From: Nitrospirota bacterium
GTDB lineage: Bacteria > Nitrospirota > UBA9217
DNA length: 64,000 nt
Assembly: GCA_963751455.1 (NCBI GenBank)
Contig: CAVVUN010000015.1
Location: forward strand, 224,001 to 288,000
Direction: 5' to 3'
In this document: positions 5,665 to 64,000 of the stretch, piece by piece
How positions within the stretch are numbered: the stretch's first letter is position 1
How the letters are laid out: every line of letters starts with the position of its first letter
Position numbers and translations under genes: made by a program
The notes under the pieces: generated by a model
The model's input: the letters and a program-made list of their open reading frames with translations, nothing else
Databases searched by the model: none
Told to the model about the DNA's origin: nothing

Positions 5665-6008
5665 AGCCCCTCGTGCATCCCGGTCATGAACAAATTCTAA
5701 TATCGATAAAAATCGTAATCAGTTTAGTAATGATATTCGCGGCATGTCTGCGCGGCGCTGCCGATGTAGCCCCCCACCCGGTCCCTCTCCCTGGAAGGGA
5801 GAAGGGCTAGTGGATACCCATCACTCCCCGCTGCCGCAGTCGTAACCGACCGGGTGCAGGCAAAGATAATTCTATGGGCGGTGCAGAAAAAAGAAAAAAT
5901 CTTGCCTGCGGCCAGTGGTTATAAGTGCATAGCGTAGCCTGCTCTAACGAAAACGCGGCCATAAACGAATACAGGCTGAACTTCATGGCATGAAGTTCAG
6001 GCCTTTTT
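5665..6008 (-). repeat. Mosaic modular repeat, copy 1 (includes a CCCTCTCCC..GGGAGA palindrome)
   Basis: Reverse complement aligns with 25120-25485 and 21217-21390; palindrome GAACTTCATGGCATGAAGTTC near 5978-5998. Confidence 0.9.
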
Positions 6009-6012
6009 GCAT

Positions 6013-7790: not shown

Positions 7791-7940
7791 AAAAAACCAA
7801 GGATCCTGAACGTCATGCCGAGAAGTTCAGTCGGTATTCGTTTATGGCCGGGTTTTCGTTAGAGCAGGCTACGCTACGCACAAGGCTTAGACTCATTGTC
7901 GTACCATCTCGCTGAAAAGCGCGAGACGGGAATCAGGGGT
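7791..7940 (+). repeat. Mosaic modular repeat, copy 2 (partial; contains module Y at 7882-7940)
   Basis: Aligns with 25120-25269. Confidence 0.9.
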
Positions 7941-8162
7941 AACCTACGCACATGGCCATAGGTCACGGCGTTCACTTCAGAGCAGCCTTGGGCCTGCCAA
8001 GGAAGGACTGCATGTTTATCAAGGAGTGATAGACTATGAAAAAGGGGCTCAACACATTGAGAGACATTGAAATGAAAATTGTAAAGCACATTAATTGTCT
8101 TTATTTTTTATCCAGAAACCCATAGGTGTGCGTTCTGACCAATTCAACGGAGGAGGTATCCT

Positions 8163-9135: not shown

Positions 9136-9228
9136 GATATAGTCCTGATAAAGCCGAACCCTTTGCAAGGAGGGGGCGGAAAGTAACGGGTCTCTCCAAA
9201 CGGAGACAGCCGAGCTGCCGGGAATATC
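9136..9228 (+). ncRNA. c-di-GMP-I (GEMM-I) riboswitch aptamer
   Basis: P1 GATAT..CCTG / CGGG..ATATC; P2 CCGAACCCTTT-GCAA-GGAGGGGGCGG with GNRA loop; AAAG junction; P3 GGGTCTC..GAGACAGCC..GCTGCCG; matches the Geobacter-type GEMM-I layout. Confidence 0.88.
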
Positions 9229-21216: not shown

Positions 21217-21570
21217 AAAAACAAGGATCTGAACATCATGCCATGAAGTTCAGCCTGTATTCGCGCTATGCACTCATAACCACGCCCTGTACTCGCGCTG
21301 TGCGCTCGTGGCACTGGGTGCAGGCTGGCCGCAGGCAAGATCCTTGTTTTTTTCTGCACCGCCATTCGCACTGCCGCGCAGACATGCCAGAATGTCTTTA
21401 ATTTTACCTTTCAATACAGCCGTCCAGCCTGCGCCCAGCGTTTACGAGTGCGATGCGCGAGTGCAGGGTGAGCGCTGAGCTTCGCACGCGCATGCATGAT
21501 TTGTGATTTGCCGACTCGAGTTCGGTCATGTAAAGCGCGGTCGGTGCTCATGGGATGCAGGGGTGTCTGC
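21217..21570 (+). repeat. Mosaic modular repeat, copy 5 (TIR AAAAACAAGGATCT / AGATCCTTGTTTTT enclosing nested Z modules, then further Z and W modules)
   Basis: 14 bp inverted repeat at 21217-21230 and 21338-21351; aligns with 25120-25710. Confidence 0.92.
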
Positions 21571-25119: not shown

Positions 25120-25805
25120 AAAAACAAAGGATCATGGACTTCATGCCAGGAAGTTCAGCCTGTATTCGTTTATGGCCGCGCTTTCGCTAGAGCAGGCTAC
25201 GTTGCGCACAATGCTTAGACTCGTTGTCGTACCATCTCGCTGAGAACCGCGAGACGGGAATCAAGGGCCTCATAACCACGCCCTGTACTCGCGCTGTGCA
25301 CTCGTGGCACTGGGTGCAGGCTGGCCGCAGGCACGATCTTTTTCTGCACCGCCCATAGAATTATCTTTGCCTGCACCCGGTCGGTTACGACTGCGGCAGC
25401 GGGGAGTGACGGGTGTCCACTAGCCCCTCTCCTTCCGGGAGAGGGACCGGGTGAGGGGCTACATCTGCAGCACCGCGCAGACATGACAGGATGTTTTCAG
25501 TTTTACCTGTCAGCCGCCCATTGCGCTGAGTATCGCTGCGCTTCGCACGCGCATGCACGATTTCTGATTTACCGACTCTGCTACCGGTCCTGTAAAGCGC
25601 GGACGACTTGCACCCAACGATTTCGAGCCTGCACCCGGTTATTACGAGTGGTACCGCGAGTATGGGGTGTGCGCAAGCGCGAGAGTAGGGGTGCTCGCGG
25701 GATGCAGGGTGGCATGGGAAAGCATGACAGAGGCGGCCAAGCGATGAGCTGCCCAAAAAAACAAAAGACCATGAACGGCCTGGCATGAAGTTTAAATCTT
25801 TTTAC
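25120..25805 (+). repeat. Mosaic modular repeat, copy 6 (longest; X, Y, several Z, W and the CCCTCTCC palindrome)
   Basis: Contains the modules found in the other copies. Confidence 0.92.
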
Positions 25806-43208: not shown

Positions 43209-43282
43209 TTCATCTTGCTTTTTCCGCTCGATTATACTATCTTTTTATCGTGGACGTTCCGCAAGGATTTATCGAGGGATGT

Positions 43283-43690
43283 ATGAGCCAGGAGACTATA
43301 ATAAAAACAGTGCTTGCATTTTATCCGGATGCAGAGGCTATCTACCTTTTCGGGTCCTATCTGACGCCGCATGAACAAAAGGACAGTGATGTAGACCTTG
43401 CCGTTCTTCTTTCTCCCGCCAAGGCCAAGCTTCTCGGAAGTCCAGCAATGAGCGAATGCCGGAATGCGCTTGAAGACGCCTTAAGGAGGACCGTGGACCT
43501 TATCAACCTGCGGATGGTAAATACCGTTTTTCAGAATGAAATCATCCAGGAAAGCAGGCTTATTTACAAGCAGAACGAGTATGTCACCGATGTTTTCGAG
43601 ATGCAGGTCATGTCAGCCTATCAGAAGCTGAACGAAGAACGCGCGGGCATTCTGGAAGATATATTTGAAAGCGGGAGAATACTGCGATGA
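43283..43690 (+). CDS. mntA: Type VII TA antitoxin, MntA adenylyltransferase
   Basis: GS-x10-DxD motif (GSYLTPHEQKDSDVD); overlaps the HepT start. Confidence 0.9.
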   Translation: MSQETIIKTVLAFYPDAEAIYLFGSYLTPHEQKDSDVDLAVLLSPAKAKLLGSPAMSECRNALEDALRRTVDLINLRMVNTVFQNEIIQESRLIYKQNEYVTDVFEMQVMSAYQKLNEERAGILEDIFESGRILR

Positions 43691-44109
43691 TGGACGTTAT
43701 CCTTAACAAGAAAGAGAGTGTCGAACGGTGCATCAGGCAAATTCGCGCCTATTATGACATGCATTCGGCCCTTCCGTTTGAAAAGGATTATTTAAAGCAG
43801 GACGCAATCGCGGCAAATCTTCAGCGCGCTGCCGAACAGGTCATCGACCTGGCGAATCATGTCATTCGAAAGAAAAAGCTCGGATTGCCGAAGGAAAGCA
43901 AGGAAAGTTTTGAGATACTTGCCGCCGCTGACATTATTCCGCAGGACCTTGCAGACAAATTAAAAGGCATGGTCGGGTTTCGCAATATCATGGTCCATCA
44001 ATACCAAGAAATGGACATTAAGATCATGATCGATGTGATCGAACACCATCTCGACGACCTGATTGTCTATACCAATCATCTCATTAAGTTCGGCCGCAGC
44101 TCATCCTGA
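43687..44109 (+). CDS. hepT: Type VII TA toxin, HepT (DUF86 HEPN RNase)
   Basis: R-x4-H-x-Y motif (RNIMVHQY). Confidence 0.9.
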   Translation: MMDVILNKKESVERCIRQIRAYYDMHSALPFEKDYLKQDAIAANLQRAAEQVIDLANHVIRKKKLGLPKESKESFEILAAADIIPQDLADKLKGMVGFRNIMVHQYQEMDIKIMIDVIEHHLDDLIVYTNHLIKFGRSSS

Positions 44110-44201
44110 CTTCCCCGGTTTCAAAGCCGCATTGTGAAATAAAATCAGGGCTCTTACTGATAATGACAGATTTGTAAAAAAGATTTGTCACAGAGTACAC
44201 A

Positions 44202-44403
44202 CCTTGCACCGCATGCATTCGCGCTGGAGCACTCATCCGCGCTTGGGGCAGGCTCGCGGTACCGTAATGCTTATACTCGTTGTCGTACCCTTTCGCTGAG
44301 TAAGGCTTAGACCCTTTGTCGACCACCGCACTGAGAAACGTGCGGCGGGAATCAATGACCGCAGAAACGGGAATCAAGGACCTCATAAGCGCTGGGTGCA
44401 GGC
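44202..44403. repeat. Mosaic modular repeat, copy 7 (Z containing a Z and a Y-in-Y)
   Basis: Inner Z 44210-44253; outer Y 44266-44382; inner Y 44302-44360. Confidence 0.85.
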
Positions 44404-44471
44404 AGAGAGCACCGGAGTTAAACTTTAAGAAGGCAAGCCTTCTCAATAACCCCCCAAATTTCCTCCTTCCG

Positions 44472-47315
44472 TCACAAAGTCGGCTCATTTCCGGATGTAT
44501 CCTGACTCGAAAGCATAGACTGGACCATTACCCGAAACCTCTCCGGGGCGATATCCAAGATCAAGTCAATGTTGGCATGACGGTAGATATTCACCCATTC
44601 TTCCTTGCGGCGAAGATCAAGTTTGGGATTGATGATATACCAGCCCGTTCTCACCCGTTTGAAAAGCTTTTTGCCGTACAGGTTCGTGCTGATTGTTTCA
44701 TTCTTTGACAGCAGAGAGGATATGTAGGCCCGCTTCTTCCGGTACGCGGGAATGACGCTGTCGGGCAGCCCGGCGATCATGTCCGCAAGCTCGACGGCCT
44801 TGACCGGCACGAGGTCCGCGTACCTGTTGTTGAGCCGGGTATGCATGATGGCAAAAAATATATTAAACAATAGAAACTCGCCCTGACTTGCGTCGATCTT
44901 GATCAGCCGGTCGTCTGCCTTGAGGCTCACGCTGCCCTGCGTGAGCAGCTCGTGCACGGCAGGGAATAAATCAGTGGCAAATTTCTTGTCCTGCATGGCC
45001 CTCTGCAGAGCGCCCTGCCACGCGGTGAGACCGTAATTGTCGGCAAGTTCGCCGTCCGCGCCTGAGGCCAGCAATTCCCTCACGAGCGCGGCATTTCCGG
45101 CTACCGCGGCAAGCATGAGCGGCGTCTTGTTGAAGATCGTGCGGTGGTCCACGCCGTAGGTATCACACTGCCTGATAATACCCTGGTAGAATTTCCCCGA
45201 GTACTCCTGAAAATATCGTGACGTGACGCCCAGCCTTTGCTGCGCATAGAGCTGCTCGTTCAGATACCGGGCGCCATGCTCAGTATAGAAAAGTTGTTTT
45301 GCCTTGTCAAAGCCGTGCTGACTAAGCATGTCGATCATTCGCGGTTCATTATAAAACAGGGCGTAATCAAAGAGCGTCTTTCCTGGTTTTTGTGAAACTT
45401 CTTTCGGATCGCGCGAACGAGCGAGCAGCTCTCTGACCCTTTTGGGCACGCATACTTCCCACGGCACGGGCTGCGTCTTCAGGATATCGCGCCTGATCTC
45501 GTCGGCCTGGTCCTGCCTGCCCTGAAGCTCGAGTTTGTGCGCCTCGGCCTGCCACTCCTCGATGCTCGACTGTTTGACGTCGATGGTTACGTTTTCCCGC
45601 GCGTTCCGCAGGCCCAGCATGCGGATGAGGGGATGGTTCGTATCGCTCTCGATCAGATACAGCCGCTGCACGGCGCGGGTAACCGCGACGTACAGGGAGT
45701 TGACAAAGAATTTGTAAACCTCGAGCGACTTGTCGGTCTTATCCCGTGCGCGCCGGTACTCAAGATCGCCGCTTAAGTCCTGCTCGCTCACCCCTTCGAT
45801 GAGCTCCCCGAAACTGGCCCGCTCATTCGATATGAAGTTGACCAGGATAACGTTTTCGTATTCAAGCCCCTTCGCCTCCTGGATGCTGAACAAGAGCGGC
45901 GTATCGAAGAATGCGCGCACTGCTGCCTTATCCTCGTCCCGCATGACGAGAACGGCGAATTTCGCGGAGCGCCTTGTCGTCTTGCTCAGGTCCCGCTTCG
46001 CCCTGTCCGTGTCCTTCAGGAATACCAGCTCTCCGTTCGCGTCCGACACGCTATTCATTAGGTAATTGCTTTCCCGGTCGATGGACCCGAAGCGTTTTTG
46101 CTTTATCCGCAGCAGCGTGTTGGCTAATTCCGTCACTGAAACGGAATTTCGGAAATTGGACTGAAGTATTCTCGTCACCTTGCCCGATTCCAAAGACTCG
46201 GCGCTGTAGAGCATGGTCTTGAGGCCGCTCCAGGAAAAGAAGTTAGGGTGGACGATCTGGTTGGAGTCTCCGCAGAGAATGAAATCCTCCTGCTTCTTAA
46301 GGCTCTTCAGAATCAGTGTGAGCTCGATATTCGTGATATCCTGCACTTCGTCTACGACGATGAAGTCGTAATCCTGCCTTGCGTGTGCAAGGTAGCCGTG
46401 CGCCAGGATATTGGGATCGTACCAACCGTTCTCCCTGAGAAAAATAAGGTACTTGTCGAACAGCGTGTACACCAGCGCTCGCTCTTCAGCGAGATAGATG
46501 GACTGCCGGACCCCGAGGCCGAGATATTCCTCCCGGGAGAGAAACGGCTTGTCCACGATGGAGCCGGTGATCACGCCGCGGAACTCCTCATAGAGGCGAT
46601 GGACGTCGGAGACGCGCTGCTGCCGGGGAATGCGCATGAGCCATTTGACGAACGCGCTGTACGTGATTTCTCTGCCTTCCGGCACCCGCATCGTCTCCAT
46701 GAACTCCCGGAATGACAGAAATGAAACTTCCTGGTCGTCGTTTTCATAATGATGAGAGTAGTAAACGTTCCTCGAATTGTCCGCAAGATACCGCGACAGC
46801 GTGACATACAGGACCCGGCCGTAAGCGCGCTTCATCCTTTCCAAGGTAAGGGCCGTCTTTCCGCTGCCTGCCGGACCGATTATGATGAGCGGCGAGGGAT
46901 GATGATAGGCGTCCTGCTGCTCCGGGTCAAAGGAGATGATCTTGTCCAGAAAGTGAAACCGGGTTGCCGATGGGTTCAGGTACCTTAGGGTGGGGACGCT
47001 ATCGTCTTTAAAGGACGATTGCTCAACGGCCAAGATCTTCGATTCGTCCACTTTGACTCCGCGAAGGAACTTCGATTTGTTATAAGCATGATTCAGCACG
47101 AGCTCGAGAATGAGGGCATAACGCTCTCCCTCGAAGGTCATGATCTTGAAGAGCAGGCGGTTGCTGTCGTCGAGCTTGGCCCGATAGAGGTCCTGCTCCG
47201 CCAGCTTTTTGACCTCTGCGGAATAGAAATCCTCCTTTTCGAGAAAGCCCAGGAGCTTTTGGTACTGACGTTTTACCTTCGACGTGTCGAGATCCGCGTA
47301 TTCAAGAATTTTCAC
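44472..47315 (-). CDS. SF1 (UvrD-like) helicase with RelE-like N-terminus and ankyrin repeat
   Basis: GPAGSGKT, VVDEVQD, GDSNQ, NFRN, QEAKGLEY, YVAVTRA; ankyrin TPLMLAAVAGNAALVRELLASGAD. Confidence 0.88.
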   Translation of the reverse strand: MKILEYADLDTSKVKRQYQKLLGFLEKEDFYSAEVKKLAEQDLYRAKLDDSNRLLFKIMTFEGERYALILELVLNHAYNKSKFLRGVKVDESKILAVEQSSFKDDSVPTLRYLNPSATRFHFLDKIISFDPEQQDAYHHPSPLIIIGPAGSGKTALTLERMKRAYGRVLYVTLSRYLADNSRNVYYSHHYENDDQEVSFLSFREFMETMRVPEGREITYSAFVKWLMRIPRQQRVSDVHRLYEEFRGVITGSIVDKPFLSREEYLGLGVRQSIYLAEERALVYTLFDKYLIFLRENGWYDPNILAHGYLAHARQDYDFIVVDEVQDITNIELTLILKSLKKQEDFILCGDSNQIVHPNFFSWSGLKTMLYSAESLESGKVTRILQSNFRNSVSVTELANTLLRIKQKRFGSIDRESNYLMNSVSDANGELVFLKDTDRAKRDLSKTTRRSAKFAVLVMRDEDKAAVRAFFDTPLLFSIQEAKGLEYENVILVNFISNERASFGELIEGVSEQDLSGDLEYRRARDKTDKSLEVYKFFVNSLYVAVTRAVQRLYLIESDTNHPLIRMLGLRNARENVTIDVKQSSIEEWQAEAHKLELQGRQDQADEIRRDILKTQPVPWEVCVPKRVRELLARSRDPKEVSQKPGKTLFDYALFYNEPRMIDMLSQHGFDKAKQLFYTEHGARYLNEQLYAQQRLGVTSRYFQEYSGKFYQGIIRQCDTYGVDHRTIFNKTPLMLAAVAGNAALVRELLASGADGELADNYGLTAWQGALQRAMQDKKFATDLFPAVHELLTQGSVSLKADDRLIKIDASQGEFLLFNIFFAIMHTRLNNRYADLVPVKAVELADMIAGLPDSVIPAYRKKRAYISSLLSKNETISTNLYGKKLFKRVRTGWYIINPKLDLRRKEEWVNIYRHANIDLILDIAPERFRVMVQSMLSSQDTSGNEPTL

Positions 47316-47558: not shown

Positions 47559-47846
47559 ATGGCGACAGCGCTGAACGAAGAAAAGAGAAAAATCGTCACT
47601 CAGGCACTCTGGGATCTCAATATGACTCCGGACGATTTTGTCGGAATCATCAAGGGGACCGTACAGCGAAACTGGCCTTCGAGGGGTTTTTGCGTGGCGC
47701 GGCTCCTTGAAAGTGTAAACTGGTTTGACATCGTCAAGATATTTCCCCCCGCTGAGATCTGTGCTGTCTGGGAGGAAACTGAAAAATACCTTCGGAGCGA
47801 ATCGATCCGGAAAGGGATGGAATTTGCCTGCCGAACACTACGCTAA
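47559..47846 (+). CDS. Small putative antitoxin partner of AbiEii
   Basis: 95 aa, LWD..ARLLE motif, overlaps the downstream nucleotidyltransferase. Confidence 0.7.
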   Translation: MATALNEEKRKIVTQALWDLNMTPDDFVGIIKGTVQRNWPSRGFCVARLLESVNWFDIVKIFPPAEICAVWEETEKYLRSESIRKGMEFACRTLR

Positions 47847-48474
47847 CGTTCTGTATCCCCTGCAGGACAAAGTCGTTGCGCTTTTCAAGAATACGCCATT
47901 CTATCTTACTGGCGGCACCGCCCTATCCAGAGGCTATTTTCAACACCGCTATTCGGATGACCTCGACTACTTCGTAAACGACCACCCCGACTTTAGTCGC
48001 ATAGCAGAACGGCAGATCGCAAAGCTCGGTTCTCTTTTTAACGAAGTAGATATAGCGCTTCGAGCAGACAACTTCACCCGATTGTTCGTTTCCGCCGAGC
48101 GGTTGAAGATCGAGCTGATCAACGATGTGCCGGCCCATATCGGAAGGCGTGTCGAGCATCCGACGCTCGGCATTATCGATTCGAAGGAAAACATCCTCGC
48201 TAATAAGATAACGGCACTTGTAGACCGCAGCATGCCCAAAGATGTCGCCGACATCTATTTCCTGCTTAAAGATGGGTTGAGTATCAAGCAGGCGCTCGTC
48301 AACGCCGACAGCAAGGCCGCCGGGATATCGCCGCTGCTCGTGGCAAAAATTCTCGCGGAGTTCGATTATGCGCTCCTTGATACCGAGATCAAATGGAGTA
48401 GCCCCATTCCCGCAGATGTCATTCGACATTATCTAACGGACATCTCGAGAAAAATCATCATGGGCAATGTATAG
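47824..48474 (+). CDS. AbiEii/AbiGii family nucleotidyltransferase toxin
   Basis: FYLTGGTAL..HRYSDDLDYF, ANKITA..R..KDVADI; probable TTG start. Confidence 0.88.
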   Translation: MPAEHYANVLYPLQDKVVALFKNTPFYLTGGTALSRGYFQHRYSDDLDYFVNDHPDFSRIAERQIAKLGSLFNEVDIALRADNFTRLFVSAERLKIELINDVPAHIGRRVEHPTLGIIDSKENILANKITALVDRSMPKDVADIYFLLKDGLSIKQALVNADSKAAGISPLLVAKILAEFDYALLDTEIKWSSPIPADVIRHYLTDISRKIIMGNV

Positions 48475-51326: not shown

Positions 51327-51385
51327 GGCGGTGATTTCTCACCGCCTTGTTTTTATCGATGCATCCAGCTTTTAATTCCGTGATC

Positions 51386-51694
51386 CTATGCTTTTTCCGA
51401 AGCAGCCTGCCGGATTGCTGTTGGCGCTGATACCACATACCCCATGAGCGTGCCGATCAGGCCGCCGATCACCAGGCTCACCGCTGCTGCAGCTGCGATG
51501 CCGACCATAATCCCGATGACCACCGCTGCCCGCACGAAAAGCGTCGGTTCCACCGCACCCATCAGCTTCTGCAGAAGAATCAAAGTCCCGAACGATCCGA
51601 AGTAGAACCCCGGCACGATCCCGAATACTGCGAACACCAGCCCGCCTGCTGTAGCCCCGATCCTCATTCCTGTTTTAATGGCCTCGTTCTTCAT
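51386..51694 (-). CDS. Small Gly-rich membrane protein A (copy 1)
   Basis: AGGAG RBS; hydrophobic GxxxG-rich helices; duplicated at 61793. Confidence 0.85.
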   Translation of the reverse strand: MKNEAIKTGMRIGATAGGLVFAVFGIVPGFYFGSFGTLILLQKLMGAVEPTLFVRAAVVIGIMVGIAAAAAVSLVIGGLIGTLMGYVVSAPTAIRQAASEKA

Positions 51695-51793
51695 GGCTAT
51701 CTCCTTTCTGCCGCAGCTAATGGATTTTGAACCCCGTTTGTTGCTCAATCTATATTAAGATAAGTCACGTGCCGAATTGCGCGGTTGACCGGT

Positions 51794-52105
51794 TCACTTT
51801 GAATGAGTCTCTGCAACAACGGGGTGAACCATCAGGCCCATTGCCTGACCGATTAACCAGCCGATTGACGATGAAGCCGTGGTGATCATGATGCCCGATA
51901 CCATCACACCGAGAAGCATGGAGCCCATGACGATCATGCGTGAAAGGAGTCCCGGCTCAAGAGGAAGACCGAACAGCATGCCCGCCGCGCTCACTCCCAT
52001 GGCGCCTCCGATGAGGCTTCCCGGCAGCAATCCGAAAAGTCCGAACAGAACCAGTCCTGCACCCGCTCCTGCGTAAGCACCCTGTTTTGATTTTGAGGTC
52101 TTCAT
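51794..52105 (-). CDS. Small Gly-rich membrane protein B (copy 1), paralogous to A
   Basis: AGGAGG RBS; GAGAGLVLFGLFGLLPGS versus GATAGGLVFAVFGIVPGF in A. Confidence 0.85.
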   Translation of the reverse strand: MKTSKSKQGAYAGAGAGLVLFGLFGLLPGSLIGGAMGVSAAGMLFGLPLEPGLLSRMIVMGSMLLGVMVSGIMITTASSSIGWLIGQAMGLMVHPVVAETHSK

Positions 52106-52144
52106 TTTCGTTTCCTCCTTTTCGCGTCGTCTTGCCTTTGTAAT

Positions 52145-52160
52145 TGCATCAGTCATGCCA
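52145..52160 (-). promoter_or_regulatory. Sigma54 -24/-12 promoter for genes B-A (copy 1)
   Basis: TGGCATGACTGATGCA (GG-N10-GC), ~40 bp upstream of the start. Confidence 0.7.
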
Positions 52161-52373
52161 AAGAGTAAGGTGCTGATTTTGCTGGGATCAGGGGAAGAAG
52201 GTCTTTTGCAGAAGTGAGAAGAATCGGCGGAGCTTTTTTAGAGATGCAAAACTGATCCGTAGTTTAGTGGTTGAGCGGTTGAGTAGTTGAGTGGAACGAA
52301 ATCGCCAAAAAGCCCCACCTGTTTAACTTGGCTGCATGAATTTGATCCGCGGTTTAGCGATATAATTAATACC

Positions 52374-52559
52374 ATGAAGCTCTCCGACCTGCTGGATGAC
52401 CGCTTCATCGGGGTGAACCTCAGGGCGCGTGATCAGAAAGGCTCCCTCGAGGAGATGGTCGGCATACTGAAGCGAGCGGGAAAGATTGACGATCCCAGGC
52501 AAATACTGAAGGCCCTTCTCGACCGGGAGGCTTCGGGCAGCAGGATCTTCAAAGAGTAA
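52374..52559 (+). pseudogene. Truncated duplicate of the 5' end of the EIIA/P-type ATPase gene
   Basis: MKLSDLLDD...REASGSRIF matches 62759 onward, then ends. Confidence 0.9.
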
Positions 52560-55552: not shown

Positions 55553-58500
55553 ATGAAAAATTGCAATATTCGATTGGTCGGCTTACTCTGTGGAGCACTG
55601 TTCCTGAGTCTTGCGTTCGGCTGTAAGGGTGGAGGCAACGCAAGCTTCACTCTGTTCGGAGGTTCGAGATATGTCGTCTCGATCGAGGTAACGCCGACCA
55701 ATCCCAGCATCGCCCCCGGCACAACCAGGCAGTTCACAGCCACCGCTGTCTATTCTGATAATACGACGCAGGACCTGACCGCATCCGCTGCCTGGAGCTC
55801 ATCGAATACGGCAGTTGCCACCGTCAGCAATACGGCCGGTTCCAATGGACTTGCCGCCTCGGTCGCTGCCGGTTCGACCACGATCACGGCGACGCTTGCC
55901 GGTGTATCAGGCGGTACGGACCTCACGGTGACCGCTGCAACGCTCGTCTCGATAGAAGTAACTCCGATCAATCCGAGCATCGCCCTTAACACGACCAGAC
56001 AGTTTACTGCCACAGGGATCTATTCCGACAATACGGCCCAGGACGTTACCGGGTCCGTTACCTGGAGTTCATCTAATACCGCAGTTGCCGCCATAAGCAG
56101 CACTGCCGGCACCGCCGCCTCGGTCGCTGCCGGTTCGACCACGATCACGGCGACGGCAGGTGCAATTTCGGGCAGCACCACGCTTACCGTGACCGCGGCA
56201 ACGCTTGTCTCGATCGAAGTATCGCCGACCAATCCGAGCATTGCCATCGGTATGAACAGACAGTTTACTGCCATGGGAATCTACTCGGACAGCACAAGCC
56301 TGGACCTGACCGCGTCCGTTACGTGGAGTTCATCGAATACCGCAGTTGCCGCGGTAAGCAATATCGCAGGCTCCAACGGACTCGCCACCCCGGTCGCTGC
56401 CGGCTCGACCACGGTCACGGCGACGACAGGTGCAATCTCCGGCAGCGCCACTCTGACCGTGACTGCGGCAACGCTCGTCTCGATCCAGGTCTCGCCGACC
56501 ACTCCGAGCATCGCCCTCAACACAACCAGACAGTTTACTGCAATGGGGATCTATTCCGACAGCACGAGTCAGGATCTGACCGGATCCGTTACCTGGAGTT
56601 CATCGACTACCGCAATTGCCGCAGTCAGCAACGCGCCGGGTTCCAACGGTCTGGCCACCTCTGTCGCTGCCGGCTCGACCACGATCACCGCGAGACTCGC
56701 CGGTGTATTAGGCGGCACGGACCTCACGGTGACCACGGCAACGCTCGTCTCGATCGAAGTAGCGCCGACCAATCCGGGCATTGCGCGTGCCACAAACAGA
56801 CAGTTCACTGCCACGGGGATCTATTCCGACAGCACGACCCAGGACCTGACCGCGTCCGTTACGTGGAGTTCATCGAATACGGCAATTGCCGCGGTCAGTA
56901 ACGCGCCCGGTTCCAATGGGCTGGCTGCTGCGGTCGGAGCCGGCTCGACCACGGTCACGGCGACGGCAGGCGCAATCTCGGAAAGCACCGCGCTGACAGT
57001 GACTGCGGCAACCCTGGTCTCGATCCAGGTTTCGCCGACTAATCCGAGCATCGCCCTCAATACGACCGGTCAGTTTACTGCAACAGGGATCTATTCCGAC
57101 AGCACGACCCAGGACCTGACCGCGTCCGTTACGTGGAGTTCATCGAATACGGCAATTGCCGCGGTCAGTAACGCGCCCGGTTCCAATGGGCTGGCTGCGG
57201 CGGTCGGAGCCGGCTCGACCACGGTCACGGCGACGACAGGTGCAATCTCCGGCAGCGCCACTCTGACCGTGACCGCGGCAACGCTCGTCTCGATCCAGGT
57301 AACGCCTACGAATCCGAGCATCGCCCCCGGCACGACCAGTCAGTTTACTGCCATGGGGATCTATTCCGACAGCACGAGCCAGGACCTGACCGCGTCCGTT
57401 ATCTGGAACTCATCGGCTGCCGGAGTTGCCGCAATAAGCAATACCGCAGGCTCCAACGGACTCGCCACCCCGGTCGCTGCCGGTTCAACCACGATCACGG
57501 CGACGTCAGGGTCGATCTCCAACAGCGCCACGCTGACCGTGACCGCGGCAACGCTCGTCTCGATCCAGGTAACGCCTACGAATCCGGGCATCGCCCCCGG
57601 CACGACCAGTCAGTTTATTGCCATGGGGATCTATTCCGACAGCACGAGCCAGGACTTGACCGGGTCCGTCACGTGGAGCTCATCGAATACAGCAGTTGCC
57701 ACGATAAGCCGAAGTGGCGGAACCGCAACCTCGGTAGCCGCCGGCTTGACCACGATCACGGCAACGTCAGGGTCGGTCTCCAACAGCGCCACGCTCGCAG
57801 TGACTGCGGCAACGCTCGTCTCGATTGAAGTAACTCCGACCAATCCGAGCATTGCTCTCAATACGACCAGGCAGTTTACCGCAACAGGGATCTATTCCGA
57901 CAGCACGAGCCAGGACCTGACTGCGTCCGTAACCTGGAGCTCATCCAATGCCGTAATTGCCGCGGTCAGTAACGTGCCGGGTTCCAACGGTCTCGCTACT
58001 GCGGCCGGAGCAGGTTCGAGCACAATCACGGCAACGTCAGGGTCGATATCCAACAGCACAACGCTGACAGTAACTGCAGCGACGCTCGTCTCGATCCAGG
58101 TAACACCTACGAATCCGAGCATTGCCCCGGGCACGACCAGGCAGTTTACTGCAACGGGGATCTATTCCGACAGCACGAGCCAGGACCTGACCGCGTCCGT
58201 TACGTGGAGCTCATCGAATACTGGGGTTGCCACGGTCAGCAATACTGCCGGCACCAACGGACTGGCCACCGCGGTCGCTGCCGGTTCGGCCATGATCACG
58301 GCAACGTCAGGGTCGAGCTCCAACAGCACCACGCTCACGGTGAGCGCAGCAACGCTCGTCTCGATTGAAGTAACTCCGACCAATCCGAGCATTGCTCCCG
58401 GCACGACCAGGCAGTTTACCGCAACAGGGATCTATTCCGACAGTACGAGCCAGGACCTGACCGCGTCCGTTACGTGGAGTTCTTCGAATACCGCGGTTGC

Positions 58501-61500
58501 CACGGTAAGCAATACTGCCGGTGCCAATGGACTGGCTACCTCGGGCGGAGCCGGTTCGACAACTATCACGGCGACGTCAGGGTCGATCTCCAACAGCACC
58601 ACGCTCACGGTGACCGCGGCAACGCTCGTCTCGATTGAAGTAACTCCGACCAATCCGAGCATTGCTCTCGGTACGACCAGGCAGTTTACCGCAACGGGGA
58701 TCTATTCCGACAGTACGAGCCAGGATCTGACCGCGTCCGTTACGTGGAACTCATCGAATACGGGGGTTGCCACGGTCAGCAACACTGCCGGCAGCAACGG
58801 ATTCGCCACCTCGGTCGCTGCCGGTTCGGCCATGATCACGGCAACGTCAGGGTCGATCTCCAACAGCACCACGCTCACGGTGAGTGCGGCAACGCTGGTT
58901 TCGATCCAGGTAACGCCTACCAATCCGAGCATTGCTCTCGGTACGACCCGGCAGTTTACTGCAATGGGGATCTATTCCGACAGTACGAGCCAGGACCTGA
59001 CCGCGTTCGTTACGTGGAGTTCTTCGAATACCGCAGTTGCCACGGTCAGCAATACTGCAGGTGCCAATGGGCTGGCCGCCTCGGTCGCAGCCGGTTCGAC
59101 AACTATCACGGCGACGTCAGGGTCGATCTCCAACAGCACCACTTTGACGGTGACGGCAGCGACGCTCCTTTCAATTGAAGTAACGCCTACCGATCCGAGC
59201 ATCGCCCTTGCCATGACCAGGCAGTTTACTGCAACAGGAATTTATTCCGACAGCACGAGCCAGGACCTGACCGCGTTCGTTACGTGGAGTTCTTCGAATA
59301 CCGCAGTTGCCACGGTCAGCAATACTGCCGGCTCCAATGGACTGGCCACCTCGGTCGGAGCCGGTTCCACAACGATCACGGCAACGTCAGGAATAATCTC
59401 GAACAGTACCACCCTAACAGTGACCTCGGTAACGCTGATCTCGATACAGGTCTCGCCGACCAATCCGAGCATCGCGACCGGAACAACCAGGCAGTTTACT
59501 GCAACAGGAATTTATTCCGACAGCACGAGCCGGGACCTGACCGCGTCCGTTGCCTGGAGCTCATCGAATCCCGCAGTTGCGACCGTAAGCAGCACCGGCG
59601 CAGCCACCTCGGTCGCTGCCGGTTCGGCCACGATCACGGCGACATCAGGAATAGTCTCGGACAGCACCACTCTTACAGTGACTGGGGCAACGCTTGTCTC
59701 GATCCAGGTCTCACCGACCAATCCCAGCATCGCGACCGGAACAACCAGACAGTTTACTGCAACGGGGATCTATTCCGACAGCACGAGCCAGGACCTGACC
59801 ACGTCCGTTGCCTGGAGCTCATCGAATACGGGAGTTGCCACCGTAAGCAGCACCGGCGCCGCCACACCGGTCGCTGCCGGATCGGCCACGATCACGGCGA
59901 CATCAGGAATAGTCTCGGACAGCACCACACTGACGGTGTCCGCGGCAACGCTCGTTTCGATCCAGGTAACGCCCACCAATTCGAGCATTGCCCTCGGCAC
60001 GACCAGGCAGTTTACTGCAACGGGGATCTATTCCGACAGCACGAGCCAGGACCTGACCGCGTCGGTTGTCTGGAGCTCTTCGAATACCGCAGTTGCCACC
60101 ATAAGCAGCACGGGCAGCGCCACCCCGGTTGCAGCCGGCTCGATCACGATTACGGCGGCATCGGGAATAGTCTGGGGCAGCACCACCCTGACGGTGACCG
60201 CCGGAACGCTCGACTCGATCGAGGTAACGCCGACCAGTCCCAGCATCGCGCTCGGCTCAACCAGTCAGTTCACCGCGACCGGCATCTATTCCGACAGCAC
60301 GACACAGGACCTGACTGCGTCGGTCGTCTGGAGCTCTTCGAATCCCGGAGTTGCTGCGGTAAGTAATACTGCCGGCTCCAATGGAATTGCCACCCCGGTC
60401 GCTGCCGGTTCGACCGTGATTGCGGCGACTTCGGGAACGGTTTCCAATAGCACCACGCTGACAGTGACCACGGCAACGCTGGTGTCGATCGAAGTCATAC
60501 CGACTGATCCTGCTGTCCCGATTGACATAGCCCTGCAGTTCTCGGCGAACGGCGTCTACTCGGACGGCTCTGTTCAGGATCTGACGCCGCTGCTCACCTG
60601 GACTTCATCGAACACGGGGGTTGCCACGATCAGCAATGCGGCGGGCTCCAACGGCTTCGCCATACCCGTTGCGCCGGGTACGACGACTATTACGGCATGG
60701 TTCGAAGGCGTGTCAGGATCATCAATGCTCACTGTGACTGCGGCGACACTGACATCAATCAGCATATCACCAGCTGCGGCCCAGATCGCTATTGGAACGA
60801 CTGAGCAGTTCACTGCGACCGGAACGTTCAGCGACGGCACGACCCAGGACATCACCGCGTCGGTTGTATGGACCTCATCGGATAGCGCAGTTGCGACTAT
60901 AAGCAATACTGCCGGGTCCAATGGACTTGCGAACTCGGTCACTACCGGCTCGGCCACGATCACTGCCGCACTGGGGGCGGTTACGAACACCACGACGCTC
61001 ACCGTGACGACTGCAACTCTCACGTCTATCACTATTACACCCGGCAATGCAACAATCGCAGCCGGTGCGCCTGTGCAGTACGCTGCAACAGGCAGTTTCT
61101 CCGACGGGTCCAGCCAGGACCTTACCACACAGGTGACCTGGAAATCCGCGAACAAGTCCATCGCGACCGTCAGCAATGCGTCCGGATCCAGGGGACTCGT
61201 AACGCCTGTAAACGGAGGCACGACCACGATCAGCGCCACGCATGCCGCGACCAGCGTAACAGGATCGACTACGGTTACCGTATCATCGGCTACGCTGACG
61301 AGCATCGTCGTAACGCCAGCGGATACGACCCTGAGGGCAGGGAGGACCCAGCAGTTCACCGCAACAGGGAACTATTCAGACGGATCGACCCAGGACCTGA
61401 CCAAGTCCACGAGCTTGACCTGGTCCTCATCGAACACGGCCTTTGCGACGATCATCAATAAGCCGCCAAAGAACAAGGGACTGGCCACAGGTGTGAGCGC

Positions 61501-61570
61501 GGGCATCGTCACCATTACGGCCCAGATGAAAGGTTCTCTCAGCGGCAGTACAACGCTCACGGTATATTGA
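55553..61570 (+). CDS. Giant lipoprotein with 22 tandem Big_2 (Lig-like) Ig domains, probable surface adhesin
   Basis: Lipobox AFGC; 22 units SIxVxP..QFTAxGxYSD..DLT..VTWSSS; DNA period 270/261/258 bp. Confidence 0.92.
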   Translation: MKNCNIRLVGLLCGALFLSLAFGCKGGGNASFTLFGGSRYVVSIEVTPTNPSIAPGTTRQFTATAVYSDNTTQDLTASAAWSSSNTAVATVSNTAGSNGLAASVAAGSTTITATLAGVSGGTDLTVTAATLVSIEVTPINPSIALNTTRQFTATGIYSDNTAQDVTGSVTWSSSNTAVAAISSTAGTAASVAAGSTTITATAGAISGSTTLTVTAATLVSIEVSPTNPSIAIGMNRQFTAMGIYSDSTSLDLTASVTWSSSNTAVAAVSNIAGSNGLATPVAAGSTTVTATTGAISGSATLTVTAATLVSIQVSPTTPSIALNTTRQFTAMGIYSDSTSQDLTGSVTWSSSTTAIAAVSNAPGSNGLATSVAAGSTTITARLAGVLGGTDLTVTTATLVSIEVAPTNPGIARATNRQFTATGIYSDSTTQDLTASVTWSSSNTAIAAVSNAPGSNGLAAAVGAGSTTVTATAGAISESTALTVTAATLVSIQVSPTNPSIALNTTGQFTATGIYSDSTTQDLTASVTWSSSNTAIAAVSNAPGSNGLAAAVGAGSTTVTATTGAISGSATLTVTAATLVSIQVTPTNPSIAPGTTSQFTAMGIYSDSTSQDLTASVIWNSSAAGVAAISNTAGSNGLATPVAAGSTTITATSGSISNSATLTVTAATLVSIQVTPTNPGIAPGTTSQFIAMGIYSDSTSQDLTGSVTWSSSNTAVATISRSGGTATSVAAGLTTITATSGSVSNSATLAVTAATLVSIEVTPTNPSIALNTTRQFTATGIYSDSTSQDLTASVTWSSSNAVIAAVSNVPGSNGLATAAGAGSSTITATSGSISNSTTLTVTAATLVSIQVTPTNPSIAPGTTRQFTATGIYSDSTSQDLTASVTWSSSNTGVATVSNTAGTNGLATAVAAGSAMITATSGSSSNSTTLTVSAATLVSIEVTPTNPSIAPGTTRQFTATGIYSDSTSQDLTASVTWSSSNTAVATVSNTAGANGLATSGGAGSTTITATSGSISNSTTLTVTAATLVSIEVTPTNPSIALGTTRQFTATGIYSDSTSQDLTASVTWNSSNTGVATVSNTAGSNGFATSVAAGSAMITATSGSISNSTTLTVSAATLVSIQVTPTNPSIALGTTRQFTAMGIYSDSTSQDLTAFVTWSSSNTAVATVSNTAGANGLAASVAAGSTTITATSGSISNSTTLTVTAATLLSIEVTPTDPSIALAMTRQFTATGIYSDSTSQDLTAFVTWSSSNTAVATVSNTAGSNGLATSVGAGSTTITATSGIISNSTTLTVTSVTLISIQVSPTNPSIATGTTRQFTATGIYSDSTSRDLTASVAWSSSNPAVATVSSTGAATSVAAGSATITATSGIVSDSTTLTVTGATLVSIQVSPTNPSIATGTTRQFTATGIYSDSTSQDLTTSVAWSSSNTGVATVSSTGAATPVAAGSATITATSGIVSDSTTLTVSAATLVSIQVTPTNSSIALGTTRQFTATGIYSDSTSQDLTASVVWSSSNTAVATISSTGSATPVAAGSITITAASGIVWGSTTLTVTAGTLDSIEVTPTSPSIALGSTSQFTATGIYSDSTTQDLTASVVWSSSNPGVAAVSNTAGSNGIATPVAAGSTVIAATSGTVSNSTTLTVTTATLVSIEVIPTDPAVPIDIALQFSANGVYSDGSVQDLTPLLTWTSSNTGVATISNAAGSNGFAIPVAPGTTTITAWFEGVSGSSMLTVTAATLTSISISPAAAQIAIGTTEQFTATGTFSDGTTQDITASVVWTSSDSAVATISNTAGSNGLANSVTTGSATITAALGAVTNTTTLTVTTATLTSITITPGNATIAAGAPVQYAATGSFSDGSSQDLTTQVTWKSANKSIATVSNASGSRGLVTPVNGGTTTISATHAATSVTGSTTVTVSSATLTSIVVTPADTTLRAGRTQQFTATGNYSDGSTQDLTKSTSLTWSSSNTAFATIINKPPKNKGLATGVSAGIVTITAQMKGSLSGSTTLTVY

Positions 61571-61792
61571 TGACGCGAATGCCGCTGTTCGTAGAGCTCG
61601 GATGAGGCAATCTTTTCTACCAGCATACAAAGCAGCTTTAGAGAAAAAAGACTTTGTCGTTCAAGTTTTGAGCTCAGGATCAGACCTATACTCTGGTTCG
61701 CTTACCTCTGTTGGTAAAAGCGTTGTCACATTTTTTAGCCAACAGAAAAGGCGGTGATTTCTCACCGCCTTGTACGAGCTTTAATTCCGATC

Positions 61793-62101
61793 CTACGCTT
61801 TTTCCGAAGCAGTCTGCCGGATTGCTGTTGGCGCTGATACCACATAACCCAGTACTGTTCCAACCAGCCCGCCGACCACCAGGCTCACCGCTGCTGCAGC
61901 TGCGATGCCGACCATAATCCCGATGACCACTGCTGCCCGCACGAAGAGCGTCGGTTCCACCGCGCCCATCAGCTTTTGCAGAAGGATCAAAGTCCCGAAC
62001 GATCCGAAGTAGAACCCCGGCACGATCCCGAATACTGCGAACACCAGCCCGCCTGCTGTAGCCCCGATCCTCATTCCTGTTTTAATGGTCTCGTTCTTCA
62101 T
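61793..62101 (-). CDS. Small Gly-rich membrane protein A (copy 2)
   Basis: Near-identical to 51386-51694. Confidence 0.85.
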   Translation of the reverse strand: MKNETIKTGMRIGATAGGLVFAVFGIVPGFYFGSFGTLILLQKLMGAVEPTLFVRAAVVIGIMVGIAAAAAVSLVVGGLVGTVLGYVVSAPTAIRQTASEKA

Positions 62102-62200
62102 GGCTATCTCCTTTCTGCCGCAGCTAATGGATTTTGAACCCCGTTTGTTGCTCAATCTATATTAAGATAAGTCACGTGCCGAATTGCGCGGTTGACCGGT

Positions 62201-62512
62201 TCACTTTGAATAAGTCTCTGCAACAACGGGGTGAACCATCAGGCCCATTCCCTGACCGATTAACCAGCCGATTGACGATGAAGCCGTGGTGATCATGATC
62301 CCCGATACCATCACACCCAGGAGCATGGAGACCAGGACGATCATGCGTGAAAGGATCCCCGGCTCAAGGGGAAGACCGAACAGCATGCCCGCCGCGCTCA
62401 CTCCCATGGCGCCTCCGATGAGGCTTCCCGGCAGCAATCCGAAGAGTCCGAAAAGAACCAGTCCTGCACCCGCTCCTGCGTAAGCACCCTGTTTTGATTT
62501 TGAGGTCTTCAT
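62201..62512 (-). CDS. Small Gly-rich membrane protein B (copy 2)
   Basis: Near-identical to 51794-52105. Confidence 0.85.
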   Translation of the reverse strand: MKTSKSKQGAYAGAGAGLVLFGLFGLLPGSLIGGAMGVSAAGMLFGLPLEPGILSRMIVLVSMLLGVMVSGIMITTASSSIGWLIGQGMGLMVHPVVAETYSK

Positions 62513-62551
62513 TTTCGTTTCCTCCTTTTCGCGTCGTCTTGCCTTTGTAAT

Positions 62552-62567
62552 TGCATCAGTCATGCCA
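62552..62567 (-). promoter_or_regulatory. Sigma54 -24/-12 promoter (copy 2)
   Basis: TGGCATGACTGATGCA, identical in both copies. Confidence 0.7.
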
Positions 62568-62758
62568 AAGAGTAACATGCTGATTTTGCTGGAATCAGGG
62601 GAAGAAGGTCTTTTGCAGAAGTGAGAAGAATCGGCGGAGCTTTTTTAGAGATGCAAAACTGATCAGTAGTTGAGTGGAACAAAATCGACAAAAAGCTACC
62701 ACCCGTTTAGCATGCTATGCCTGAATTTGCTCTGCGGATTAGCGATATAATTAATACC

Positions 62759-64000
62759 ATGAAGCTCTCCGACCTGCTGGATGACAGCGTCATCAGGGTG
62801 AACCTCAGGGCGCGTGATCAGAAAGGCTCCCTCGAGGAGATGGTGGGCATCCTGAAGCGAGCGGGAAAGATTAACGATCCCGGGAAAATACTGAAGGCCC
62901 TTCTCGACCGGGAGGCTTCAGGCAGCACGATCTTCGGCCGCGGGATAGCATTCCCCCATGCACGAGTGGACGGGTTGAGCGAACCCGTTGCGCTGCTCGC
63001 GCTCTCTCAAAAAGGCATTCGTTATGACGGACCCCAAGAGTATCCTGTCTATCTCCTTTTTCTATTCCTGACTCCCACCGAGACTACCGAGCTTCACCTC
63101 CAGATCCTCTCCAAGGCATCCGCAATCTTTTCAGACCCACGACTTTACCATGCGCTCCGGAAGGCGAAGTCCCGGCAGGCGCTCCTGCAGTTTCTGCTGA
63201 ACCATGAAAAAGGCGGCAAGGAAACGTTTTTTCCGCTGCCGATCGACGAGATATACAAGGAACTGGCCACCGGGCCGCAGGGACTTACTGAAGAAGAGGC
63301 AGCGAAGAGGCTTGAACGGTTCGGTTCGAATGTCCTCAGGGAGGCAAGAAGAAAACCGCTTCTTCTGCGCTTTGCAGAAAATCTTACGAACCTGCTTGCT
63401 GTCCTGCTCTGGATCGGGGGCTTTCTCGCCTTTGTTGCTCAGATGCCGGAGCTCGGCTGGGCTATATTTGCCGTGATCATCATTAATGCGCTCTTCAGTT
63501 TCTGGCAGGAGTACAAGGCGGAGCGGGCTGTGGAGGCGCTCAAGAAACTTCTTCCGAAAAAGACCCGGGTTGTCCGCAAAGGGAAGGAACAGGAGGTTCC
63601 GGCGAATACGCTCGTCCCCGGCGACATCATCCTTCTTGAAGAAGGCGACGCGGTATCCGCTGATGCGCGTCTGATTGAGGCCTCCGCGATGAGAGTGGAC
63701 AACTCCGCATTGACCGGGGAATCGAGGCCGATACACAAGGCCGCTGAAGCAGTGGTTGACGGTAAGGAGTTCCTCTGGACGGAAATTCCGAACCTTGTCT
63801 TTGCGGGCACTTCGGTATCATCCGGAAGCGGCAAGGCCGCGGTTATTGCAACGGGAATGCACAGCGAGATCGGCAGGATCGCCTCGCTCACCCAGGAACT
63901 GACGGATGAGAAGAGTCCCCTCCAGCGTGAGATCGAAAAAGTGACGAAGTTCGTTACGGTGATTGCCGTGACCATGGGCGTTCTCTTTTTCTTTCTCGGG
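62759..64000 (+). CDS. PTS EIIA domain fused to a type II P-type cation ATPase (runs off the window)
   Basis: Manual translation: GIAFPHAR (EIIA His), GLTEEEAAKRLERFGSN, LVPGDII..GDAVSADARL, VDNSALTGES; absent from the ORF track because it has no stop in the window. Confidence 0.92.
   Translation, partial: MKLSDLLDDSVIRVNLRARDQKGSLEEMVGILKRAGKINDPGKILKALLDREASGSTIFGRGIAFPHARVDGLSEPVALLALSQKGIRYDGPQEYPVYLLFLFLTPTETTELHLQILSKASAIFSDPRLYHALRKAKSRQALLQFLLNHEKGGKETFFPLPIDEIYKELATGPQGLTEEEAAKRLERFGSNVLREARRKPLLLRFAENLTNLLAVLLWIGGFLAFVAQMPELGWAIFAVIIINALFSFWQEYKAERAVEALKKLLPKKTRVVRKGKEQEVPANTLVPGDIILLEEGDAVSADARLIEASAMRVDNSALTGESRPIHKAAEAVVDGKEFLWTEIPNLVFAGTSVSSGSGKAAVIATGMHSEIGRIASLTQELTDEKSPLQREIEKVTKFVTVIAVTMGVLFFFLG

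Follow-up and report, generated by a model that had tools for sequence, protein, structure and literature searches.

Background

The small dispersed repeats (SDR) of Nostoc, attributed to Elhai and co-workers in 2008, are reportedly structured modules of 21-27 nt that have family-specific targets and insert into other repeats, and we know of no enzyme for them. They are likely the closest precedent for the element described here, a hairpin repeat that we call Y, which is about twice as long as an SDR and is likened to it by description only.

Another likeness is to the REP, BIME and REPIN elements with their RAYT (TnpA-REP). In the parts of that literature drawn on here (PMC8266576, PMC3333891, PMC6006769, PMC3116915), these are extragenic imperfect hairpins of high copy number with a conserved irregular zone in the stem, and they recall Y further in that a leader with TAG stands at the foot, the ends vary, copies are amplified in tandem and insertion occurs into existing repeats. 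As far as the same excerpts go, E. coli REPs require a conserved bulge in the stem and group 3 REPs require loop bases (PMC8266576, PMC3333891), conserved bulges and loop bases thus being found also in REPs that are handled as single-stranded DNA (PMC8266576), and low-specificity cutting leads to variable ends and tandem copies (PMC8266576, PMC3333891). For the IS200/IS605 family, orientation with replication is given in the excerpted source as the signature of single-strand transposition (PMC5371812); Y is similar in that its orientation follows replication, with the element strand on the lagging template, and in that there is no real target duplication (PMC5371812, PMC6006769, in excerpt). 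Finally, the Ssn nucleases with their SRM/NTS hairpin repeats are, in the portion of the source used, a case of dispersed hairpin repeats handled as single-stranded DNA (PMC11893778).

The locus and its layers

Re-reading of the window (the whole stretch of 64,000 nucleotides that was analysed) gave four copies of Y, at 7882, 25210, 44266 (split) and 44302, exactly where the original prediction had put them. It had described an inner loop TCGTA/GAAT (TCGA/GAAT in the 44302 copy), apical stems reading TCTCGC/GCGAGA in some copies versus CCGCAC/GTGCGG in others, and an apical loop of the form C-TGARA-NNN-G, which all intact loops in the window match; these readings are correct. The claimed nesting is also real, as the copy at 44301-44359 breaks the 44266 copy after TGAG. 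The features of the locus and of the other copies, in window coordinates, are as follows.

7882..7942, + strand: intact Y copy, within a larger composite repeat
25210..25270, + strand: intact Y copy, in the same host repeat as at 7882..7942
43250-43690: nucleotidyltransferase paired with the HepT-like ribonuclease, toxin-antitoxin-like
43687..44109, + strand: HepT-like ribonuclease, upstream neighbour of the 44266 composite
44200..44265, + strand: left arm of the host module Z (by-eye reading against other Z copies)
about 44209-44252: degenerate inner Z breaking the left arm of the host Z (by-eye reading)
44266..44300, + strand: left half of the outer Y copy, with leader, lower stem, upper stem and the first four loop bases, TGAG
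44283-44287, + strand: TCGTA strand of the inner loop, in the left half of the outer Y
44301..44359, + strand: inner copy, Y' (covariance-model match C15:268302-268361 in contig coordinates; edges uncertain by 1 nt)
44319-44322 (TCGA) and 44349-44352 (GAAT), + strand: 4x4 inner loop of Y'
44332-44339, + strand: apical loop of Y'
44360..44381, + strand: right half of the outer Y copy, with GAAT at 44371-44374
44382..44402, + strand: right arm of the host module Z
44472..47315, - strand: superfamily-1 helicase with ankyrin repeat, convergent neighbour of the composite

The composite at 44266 consists of Y' in Y in Z, and Z itself holds a nested Z; these Z layers had escaped the original prediction, as had the spread of Y through the genome and the recurrence of the nested form at other loci. 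The right half of the outer Y carries one additional stem A that the other composites have too. The host repeat of the 7882 copy also exists in a Y-free version, at about 5860-6010 on the minus strand. The 44266 composite is placed between the convergent HepT and helicase genes. No link to Y was found for either the HepT-like ribonuclease or the helicase, and neither a terminator nor a promoter was found at 44000-44600.

Several other features of the window may be recorded. An AbiEii-type nucleotidyltransferase lies at 47725-48474, near the composite, and a 2005-residue open reading frame at 55553-61570 contains about 21 repeats of 258-270 nt. A segment at 51382-52550 is duplicated at 61789-62935, about 10.4 kb away, with 94% identity. 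The sole Rfam match in the window is a c-di-GMP-I-GGC riboswitch at 9144-9223, upstream of an NmrA-like gene.

A dispersed hairpin family

Y is a dispersed, non-coding and non-autonomous mobile hairpin of 59-60 nt that forms a genome-wide family. A covariance model gave 103 matches in this genome, a profile built from three of the window copies gave 114 matches at E<0.01, falling into 75 loci, and the exact pattern was found 62 times versus 0 times for a reversed control. Together with its absence from 61 of the 64 genomes of the family that were searched, these counts show that Y does not arise by chance. The three carriers in the family have 85, 26 and 1 matches under stricter filters, and a pattern search of 301 genomes of the phylum found true copies in the same three, with five more single matches that look like chance. 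Another 76 loci were found in metagenomes. A scan of species-level genomes returned 32 loci, of which 15 are true Y, all in Nitrospirota, and 17 are chance matches, mostly to one coding motif. No true Y was found in viral contigs, and there was no match in the plasmids and phages searched. The Rfam search that the original prediction had proposed turned up no family that explains Y, in the window at gathering score or at 10 Y loci at E up to 5, where the four matches obtained are at chance level.

With genes called by a purpose-built hexamer model, only three of the 75 loci fall within called genes (two of them look like overlong start calls), in a genome that is 74% coding. Two Y arrays lie within housekeeping operons: judged by eye from the translations, the array at C15:1002561-1002725 lies between genes resembling those of ribosomal proteins L14 and L24, and the one at C2:484009-484064 between genes resembling ruvA and ruvB.

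Fold and conserved positions

Y folds as one unbranched hairpin. In the upper stem, seven of nine pairs show two-sided changes and the covariation score was reached by none of 500 shuffles, so that the covariation of the apical stem claimed from the window copies is borne out across the family; the lower stem is 72% paired and has no two-sided changes. The TAG at the foot is nearly invariant, the base ahead of it being mostly T, with G in a minority. Of 158 copies, 125 have the lower folding energy on the opposite strand when folded as RNA and 108 when folded as DNA, and wobble counts (about 36 changes making A.C and 27 making G.T, summed by hand) do not decide which strand folds.

The inner loop was compared with the definition of the sarcin-ricin/G-bulge motif (loop E). 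It is the most conserved part of Y, and its pattern matches what would be expected of such a loop: Y has a 5x4 loop with GUA/GAA and a pyrimidine mismatch at its base, a resemblance in sequence only. When the parser was free to set both loops, the 131 distinct cores had GAAT conserved to 96-99% and, on the facing side of the loop, T to 92% and A to 96%. On a rough parsimony tree of 134 copies (24 of 158, with other loop lengths, being left out), six of the nine inner-loop positions changed 0-3 times. The bulged G changed seven times, always at tips and never on an internal branch; the base preceding it alternated between C, T and A, with 12 changes. The sequence T[ACT]GTA/GAAT is found in 96 of 110 loops of 5x4 type, and 4x4 variants mostly keep a core of A.G plus T.A or G.A.

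The case is different for the apical loop, which the original prediction had read as a T-loop. The T-loop consensus is given as YGNRA/UUCRA in the part of the source consulted (bioRxiv 10.1101/2022.12.26.521914). The loop of Y starts in a YGNRA/UUNRA-like manner and 93 of 131 loops match Y[GU]NRA, but the claim is weak, as positions 2-5 changed 20, 15, 16 and 14 times on the same tree, about as often as free positions (16-22); position 5 is 83% A. Moreover, three bases and not two follow the pentaloop, no receptor is evident, 19 of 131 cores are closed by a C.A pair, and position 8 (C) changed only twice, which a T-loop does not explain. T-loop-compatible changes number 41 of 72, where a rough null gives 47% (p=0.06), and position 2 has an excess of G>T changes (13:6 versus 27:50 at other G columns, p=0.01, the copies not being independent). 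The condition under which the original prediction was to be given up, loops no more conserved than stems, consequently divides the two loops: the inner one is more constrained than most stem columns, and apical positions 2-5 are not. We also considered whether the apical loop guides Y to its 3' flank, since 37 of 157 copies are complementary there versus 28.7 in shuffles; this was rejected because only 2 of 93 are complementary when TGAG loops are excluded, so that the complementarity reflects subfamily structure.

Insertions, junctions and composites

That Y is mobile as well as structured, as the original prediction held, follows from insertion into a gene and from Y-free and filled hosts, in addition to the upper-stem covariation. 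Specifically, an in-frame copy in an ABC permease gene (C1:717408-717467) adds 18 residues at a spot where six of six orthologs lack them, and for several host repeats the Y-free and the filled form are ~60 nt, about one unit, apart in length. The patchy distribution, with Y found in 3 of 64 family genomes, and the scarcity of loci within called genes also fit mobility. At most 1 nt is duplicated upon insertion, and some junctions have lost 1-4 host bases. The right end is sharp, four bases past GAATCAA, and the left end lies ~7 bases ahead of TAGAC, usually at C or T. The left flanks are heterogeneous, without a canonical GTAG and without a fixed target tetranucleotide, which counts against movement as single-stranded DNA. 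Tandem arrays (head-to-tail, with a period of 58-59) and half-copy duplications are common. A REP-type rule for guide and cut site, tried by eye, misfits some of the junction classes. The overlapping GAAT/TCAA of Y resembles the right end of IS608, but this reading was rejected because the geometry differs.

The Y::Y' composite recurs at seven loci in this genome with an identical left junction, as well as in the relative G173 (L075, L088, L094) and in metagenomes, and it is therefore an old composite and not a fresh local event at 44266. In four Y' copies the apical loop holds a Z (Y'::Z), and a few left arms of Y continue into a third hairpin repeat. The apical loop is broken in all of these seven Y::Y' and four Y'::Z composites; that copies with an interrupted loop have spread weighs against the T-loop.

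The host module Z is about 43 nt long, with 154 parsed copies in this genome (in the window at 21254-21324, 21428-21467, 25282-25320 and 44200-44402), and was found in 21 of 44 genomes of the family but in no genome among 156 from the rest of the phylum. Its hosts are many different repeats as well as other Z copies, and the insertion site nearly always lies between C bases (C precedes 133 of the 154 copies and follows 124). Y lies in Z at 43 of the 75 loci and outside it at 32, and the insertion point within Z is identical for Y and Z. There are many other high-copy intergenic repeat families, with up to 93 intergenic regions per 14-mer, several of which host Z and Y.

Orientation with respect to replication and transcription

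In this genome, the orientation of Y tracks the replication fork rather than transcription. Y runs along the leading-strand sequence, i.e. the lagging template, at 50 of 73 loci (p=0.002, two ambiguous loci dropped), where the leading strand is taken from GC skew in an unclosed assembly and the loci are not fully independent; contig-level skew gives 52 of 75, and the copies outside Z give 24 of 32 (p=0.007). At 14 loci both flanking genes lie on the lagging strand, and in 11 of these Y follows the fork and is antisense to the genes. The ratio of sense to antisense copies is 29:25, or 32:24 with short genes counted, 24 of the 56 co-directional loci being antisense. A comparison repeat has no strand bias (50 of 106), and that of Z is weaker (91 of 148). 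In G173, about 14 of 18 loci have the same fork orientation, as determined by hand from rough 20-kb skews. However, an excess of sense copies in G173 (11:3) speaks against a reading by the fork only, and the metagenome loci have one as well (25:7, or 13:2 for copies outside Z). The metagenome ratios lie somewhat above what replication alone would be expected to give (p 0.03-0.04), which for 25:7 is 59% (p=0.03). The fork bias itself could stem from loss of the opposite strand, which folds better (lower energy in the 125 copies mentioned above).

Search for a partner gene

None of the 33 Y1 genes of this genome lies within 0.8 kb of a Y locus, the nearest being at 0.86 kb, and none of the seven in G173 has Y alongside. 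Clustering of the neighbours of Y in the genome and at the 76 metagenome loci revealed neither a repeated neighbour gene nor a common neighbour function, and no partner gene came from families of short paralogs that have Y or Z in their flanks. None was found among GIY-YIG and DUF559 genes either; Y was not found in the flanks of five of the six GIY-YIG matches in this genome, the sixth being a 628-residue protein. For Z, the search likewise returned no partner gene. Reverse transcriptases number six in this genome and two in G173.

Two observations concern the enzymes themselves. A set of 21 similar Y1 transposase genes have short terminal inverted repeats (TIRYT/subclass 2.1-like), several of them nested or broken (e.g. 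C1:546104, C15:1291667, C1:184811), and this is the main Y1 type in G173 too. In addition, the Z copy at C2:443058-443100 lies upstream of a reverse transcriptase gene, in sequence that presumably represents group II intron RNA.

Comparison with known systems

As a multi-copy extragenic imperfect palindrome with 103 matches, 72 of 75 loci outside called genes and covariation, Y has one trait of REPs. Its leader, however, is mostly TTAG or ATAG in place of the GT[AG]G of REPs, no cognate RAYT flanked by Y was found among the genes searched, and multi-copy loci are direct and in one orientation (head-to-tail or nested), whereas REPINs and BIMEs are inverted doublets. Y differs as well in its irregular zone, a 5x4 loop with the sequence of an RNA motif, and in an apical loop of constant length, about 8 nt. 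Y is REP-like in behaviour but not a member of the REPs, which the GTAG tag and a cognate RAYT define. Nor is it a REPIN, an IS200/IS605 derivative or an SRM. Where IS200/IS605 elements have two distinct ends, Y has one hairpin; it also lacks a gene and a fixed target tetranucleotide, its bias is partial at about 70%, and it did not match the ends of this genome's IS200/IS605 copies among those listed; unlike SRMs, it is absent from the flanks of the short GIY-YIG genes that were read and misfits the SRM pattern by eye. No published description of Y came up in searches of open-access text; REP family tables in supplements could contain a relative. Y is a real, undescribed family with a known kind of behaviour, the unusual feature being the G-bulge-like loop.

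How Y may spread

On balance, we think it probable that Y is moved as folded single-stranded DNA at the fork, as a REP-like non-autonomous element, by a protein acting in trans. The protein would be encoded elsewhere and is most likely a transposase of HUH/Y1 type. The written strand would fold on the exposed lagging-strand template. The protein would recognise the foot, TAGAC, together with the irregular inner loop, hence the near-invariance of both; of the upper stem only pairing would be required, and the apical loop is mostly tolerant. Y would then be cut and re-joined as a folded single strand, the freed unit being pasted at loosely specified sites, mostly before C or T, with at most 1 nt duplicated and with a preference for other hairpin repeats. 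Composites (Y in Z, Y' in Y and Z in Y') would subsequently spread as units, and tandem arrays would arise locally. Each chemical step in this account is one that we infer, and no enzyme emerged from the searches made. The account draws on the fork-linked orientation, the loose ends, the lack of real target duplication and the nesting among unrelated DNA hairpins, and on a constraint that falls on the foot and the irregular zone and not on the tip, as in REPs and IS200/IS605 elements according to the excerpts cited (PMC5371812, PMC3333891, PMC8266576, PMC6006769). The close fit of the inner loop to an RNA motif counts against it.

The original prediction had inferred that Y functions as RNA. 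Y may alternatively spread via an RNA intermediate, in which a G-bulge and a T-loop on the written strand would be bound by, e.g., the reverse transcriptase of a group II intron acting in trans and the RNA copied into single-stranded DNA at the fork in a SINE-like manner. We regard this as unlikely, and as rather unlikely in its full form, i.e. a bacterial SINE-like 59-nt RNA with a real sarcin-ricin-type loop and a T-loop that borrows a reverse transcriptase to have itself copied into the lagging-strand template and DNA hairpins, those of Y among them. Both RNA motifs lie on one strand, the 5x4 loops fit, the bulged G changes only at tips and the 4x4 core is mostly kept; most apical loops fit Y[GU]NRA, with the G>T excess at position 2, sense copies prevail outside this genome, and both main carriers have reverse transcriptases. 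A fork bias is also reported for some group II introns in the excerpt available (PMC8643678), so that fork targeting is compatible with an RNA route. Yet position 5 of the T-loop is as changeable as noted, T-loop-compatible changes stand at p=0.06 against their null, the C.A closing pair and the loop-interrupted copies recur, and the part of the upper stem that lies under the top pair and the A.C position shows no preference for G.U over A.C (10 vs 8). This genome lacks a sense bias, Y has no tail, and target duplications do not exceed 1 nt; moreover, we know of no way for a 59-nt RNA to gain defined ends without an intron core. Hairpin slippage and recombination without any enzyme of its own, with Y hitchhiking in Z and other repeats and the strand bias caused by biased deletion, appears distinctly unlikely: the many loci in family-wide Z, the common arrays and half-copy duplications and the lack of a partner gene agree with it, but 32 loci are outside Z, one of them within a gene, and the compensatory changes, together with the unpaired bases that are invariant, imply that the fold of Y is itself under selection. 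It is improbable that Y spreads as DNA and is partly kept as a protein-binding or stabilising RNA element in sense transcripts. The sense excess in G173 and metagenomes, a copy at the same place in the cheY-cheA spacer of this genome and of L139/L141, and three places where the 3' end is at most 14 nt from a start codon would suit such domestication, against which stand the antisense share of co-directional loci, neighbours without a common function, no terminator-like site at 44266 and the 61 family genomes in which Y was not found. A new small self-cleaving ribozyme, an option raised by the original prediction, is highly improbable; unpaired bases that are conserved and the head-to-tail arrays, with their period of 58-59, might recall one, but Y is a single unbranched hairpin whose ends vary, Rfam gave no similarity even when E was relaxed to 5, and antisense copies make up half of those in this genome.

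Implications

Nesting alone is not the surprise in this locus. Y is a testable case of how very small hairpin repeats spread without an adjoining transposase, having (i) defined invariant bases, (ii) a replication-strand signal, (iii) Y-free and filled sites and (iv) an in-frame insertion in a gene. Should the inner loop be recognised in DNA form, the pattern of a textbook RNA motif would be used or mimicked in the recognition of single-stranded DNA; recognition in RNA form would instead suggest that bacteria have a mini-element of retro type.
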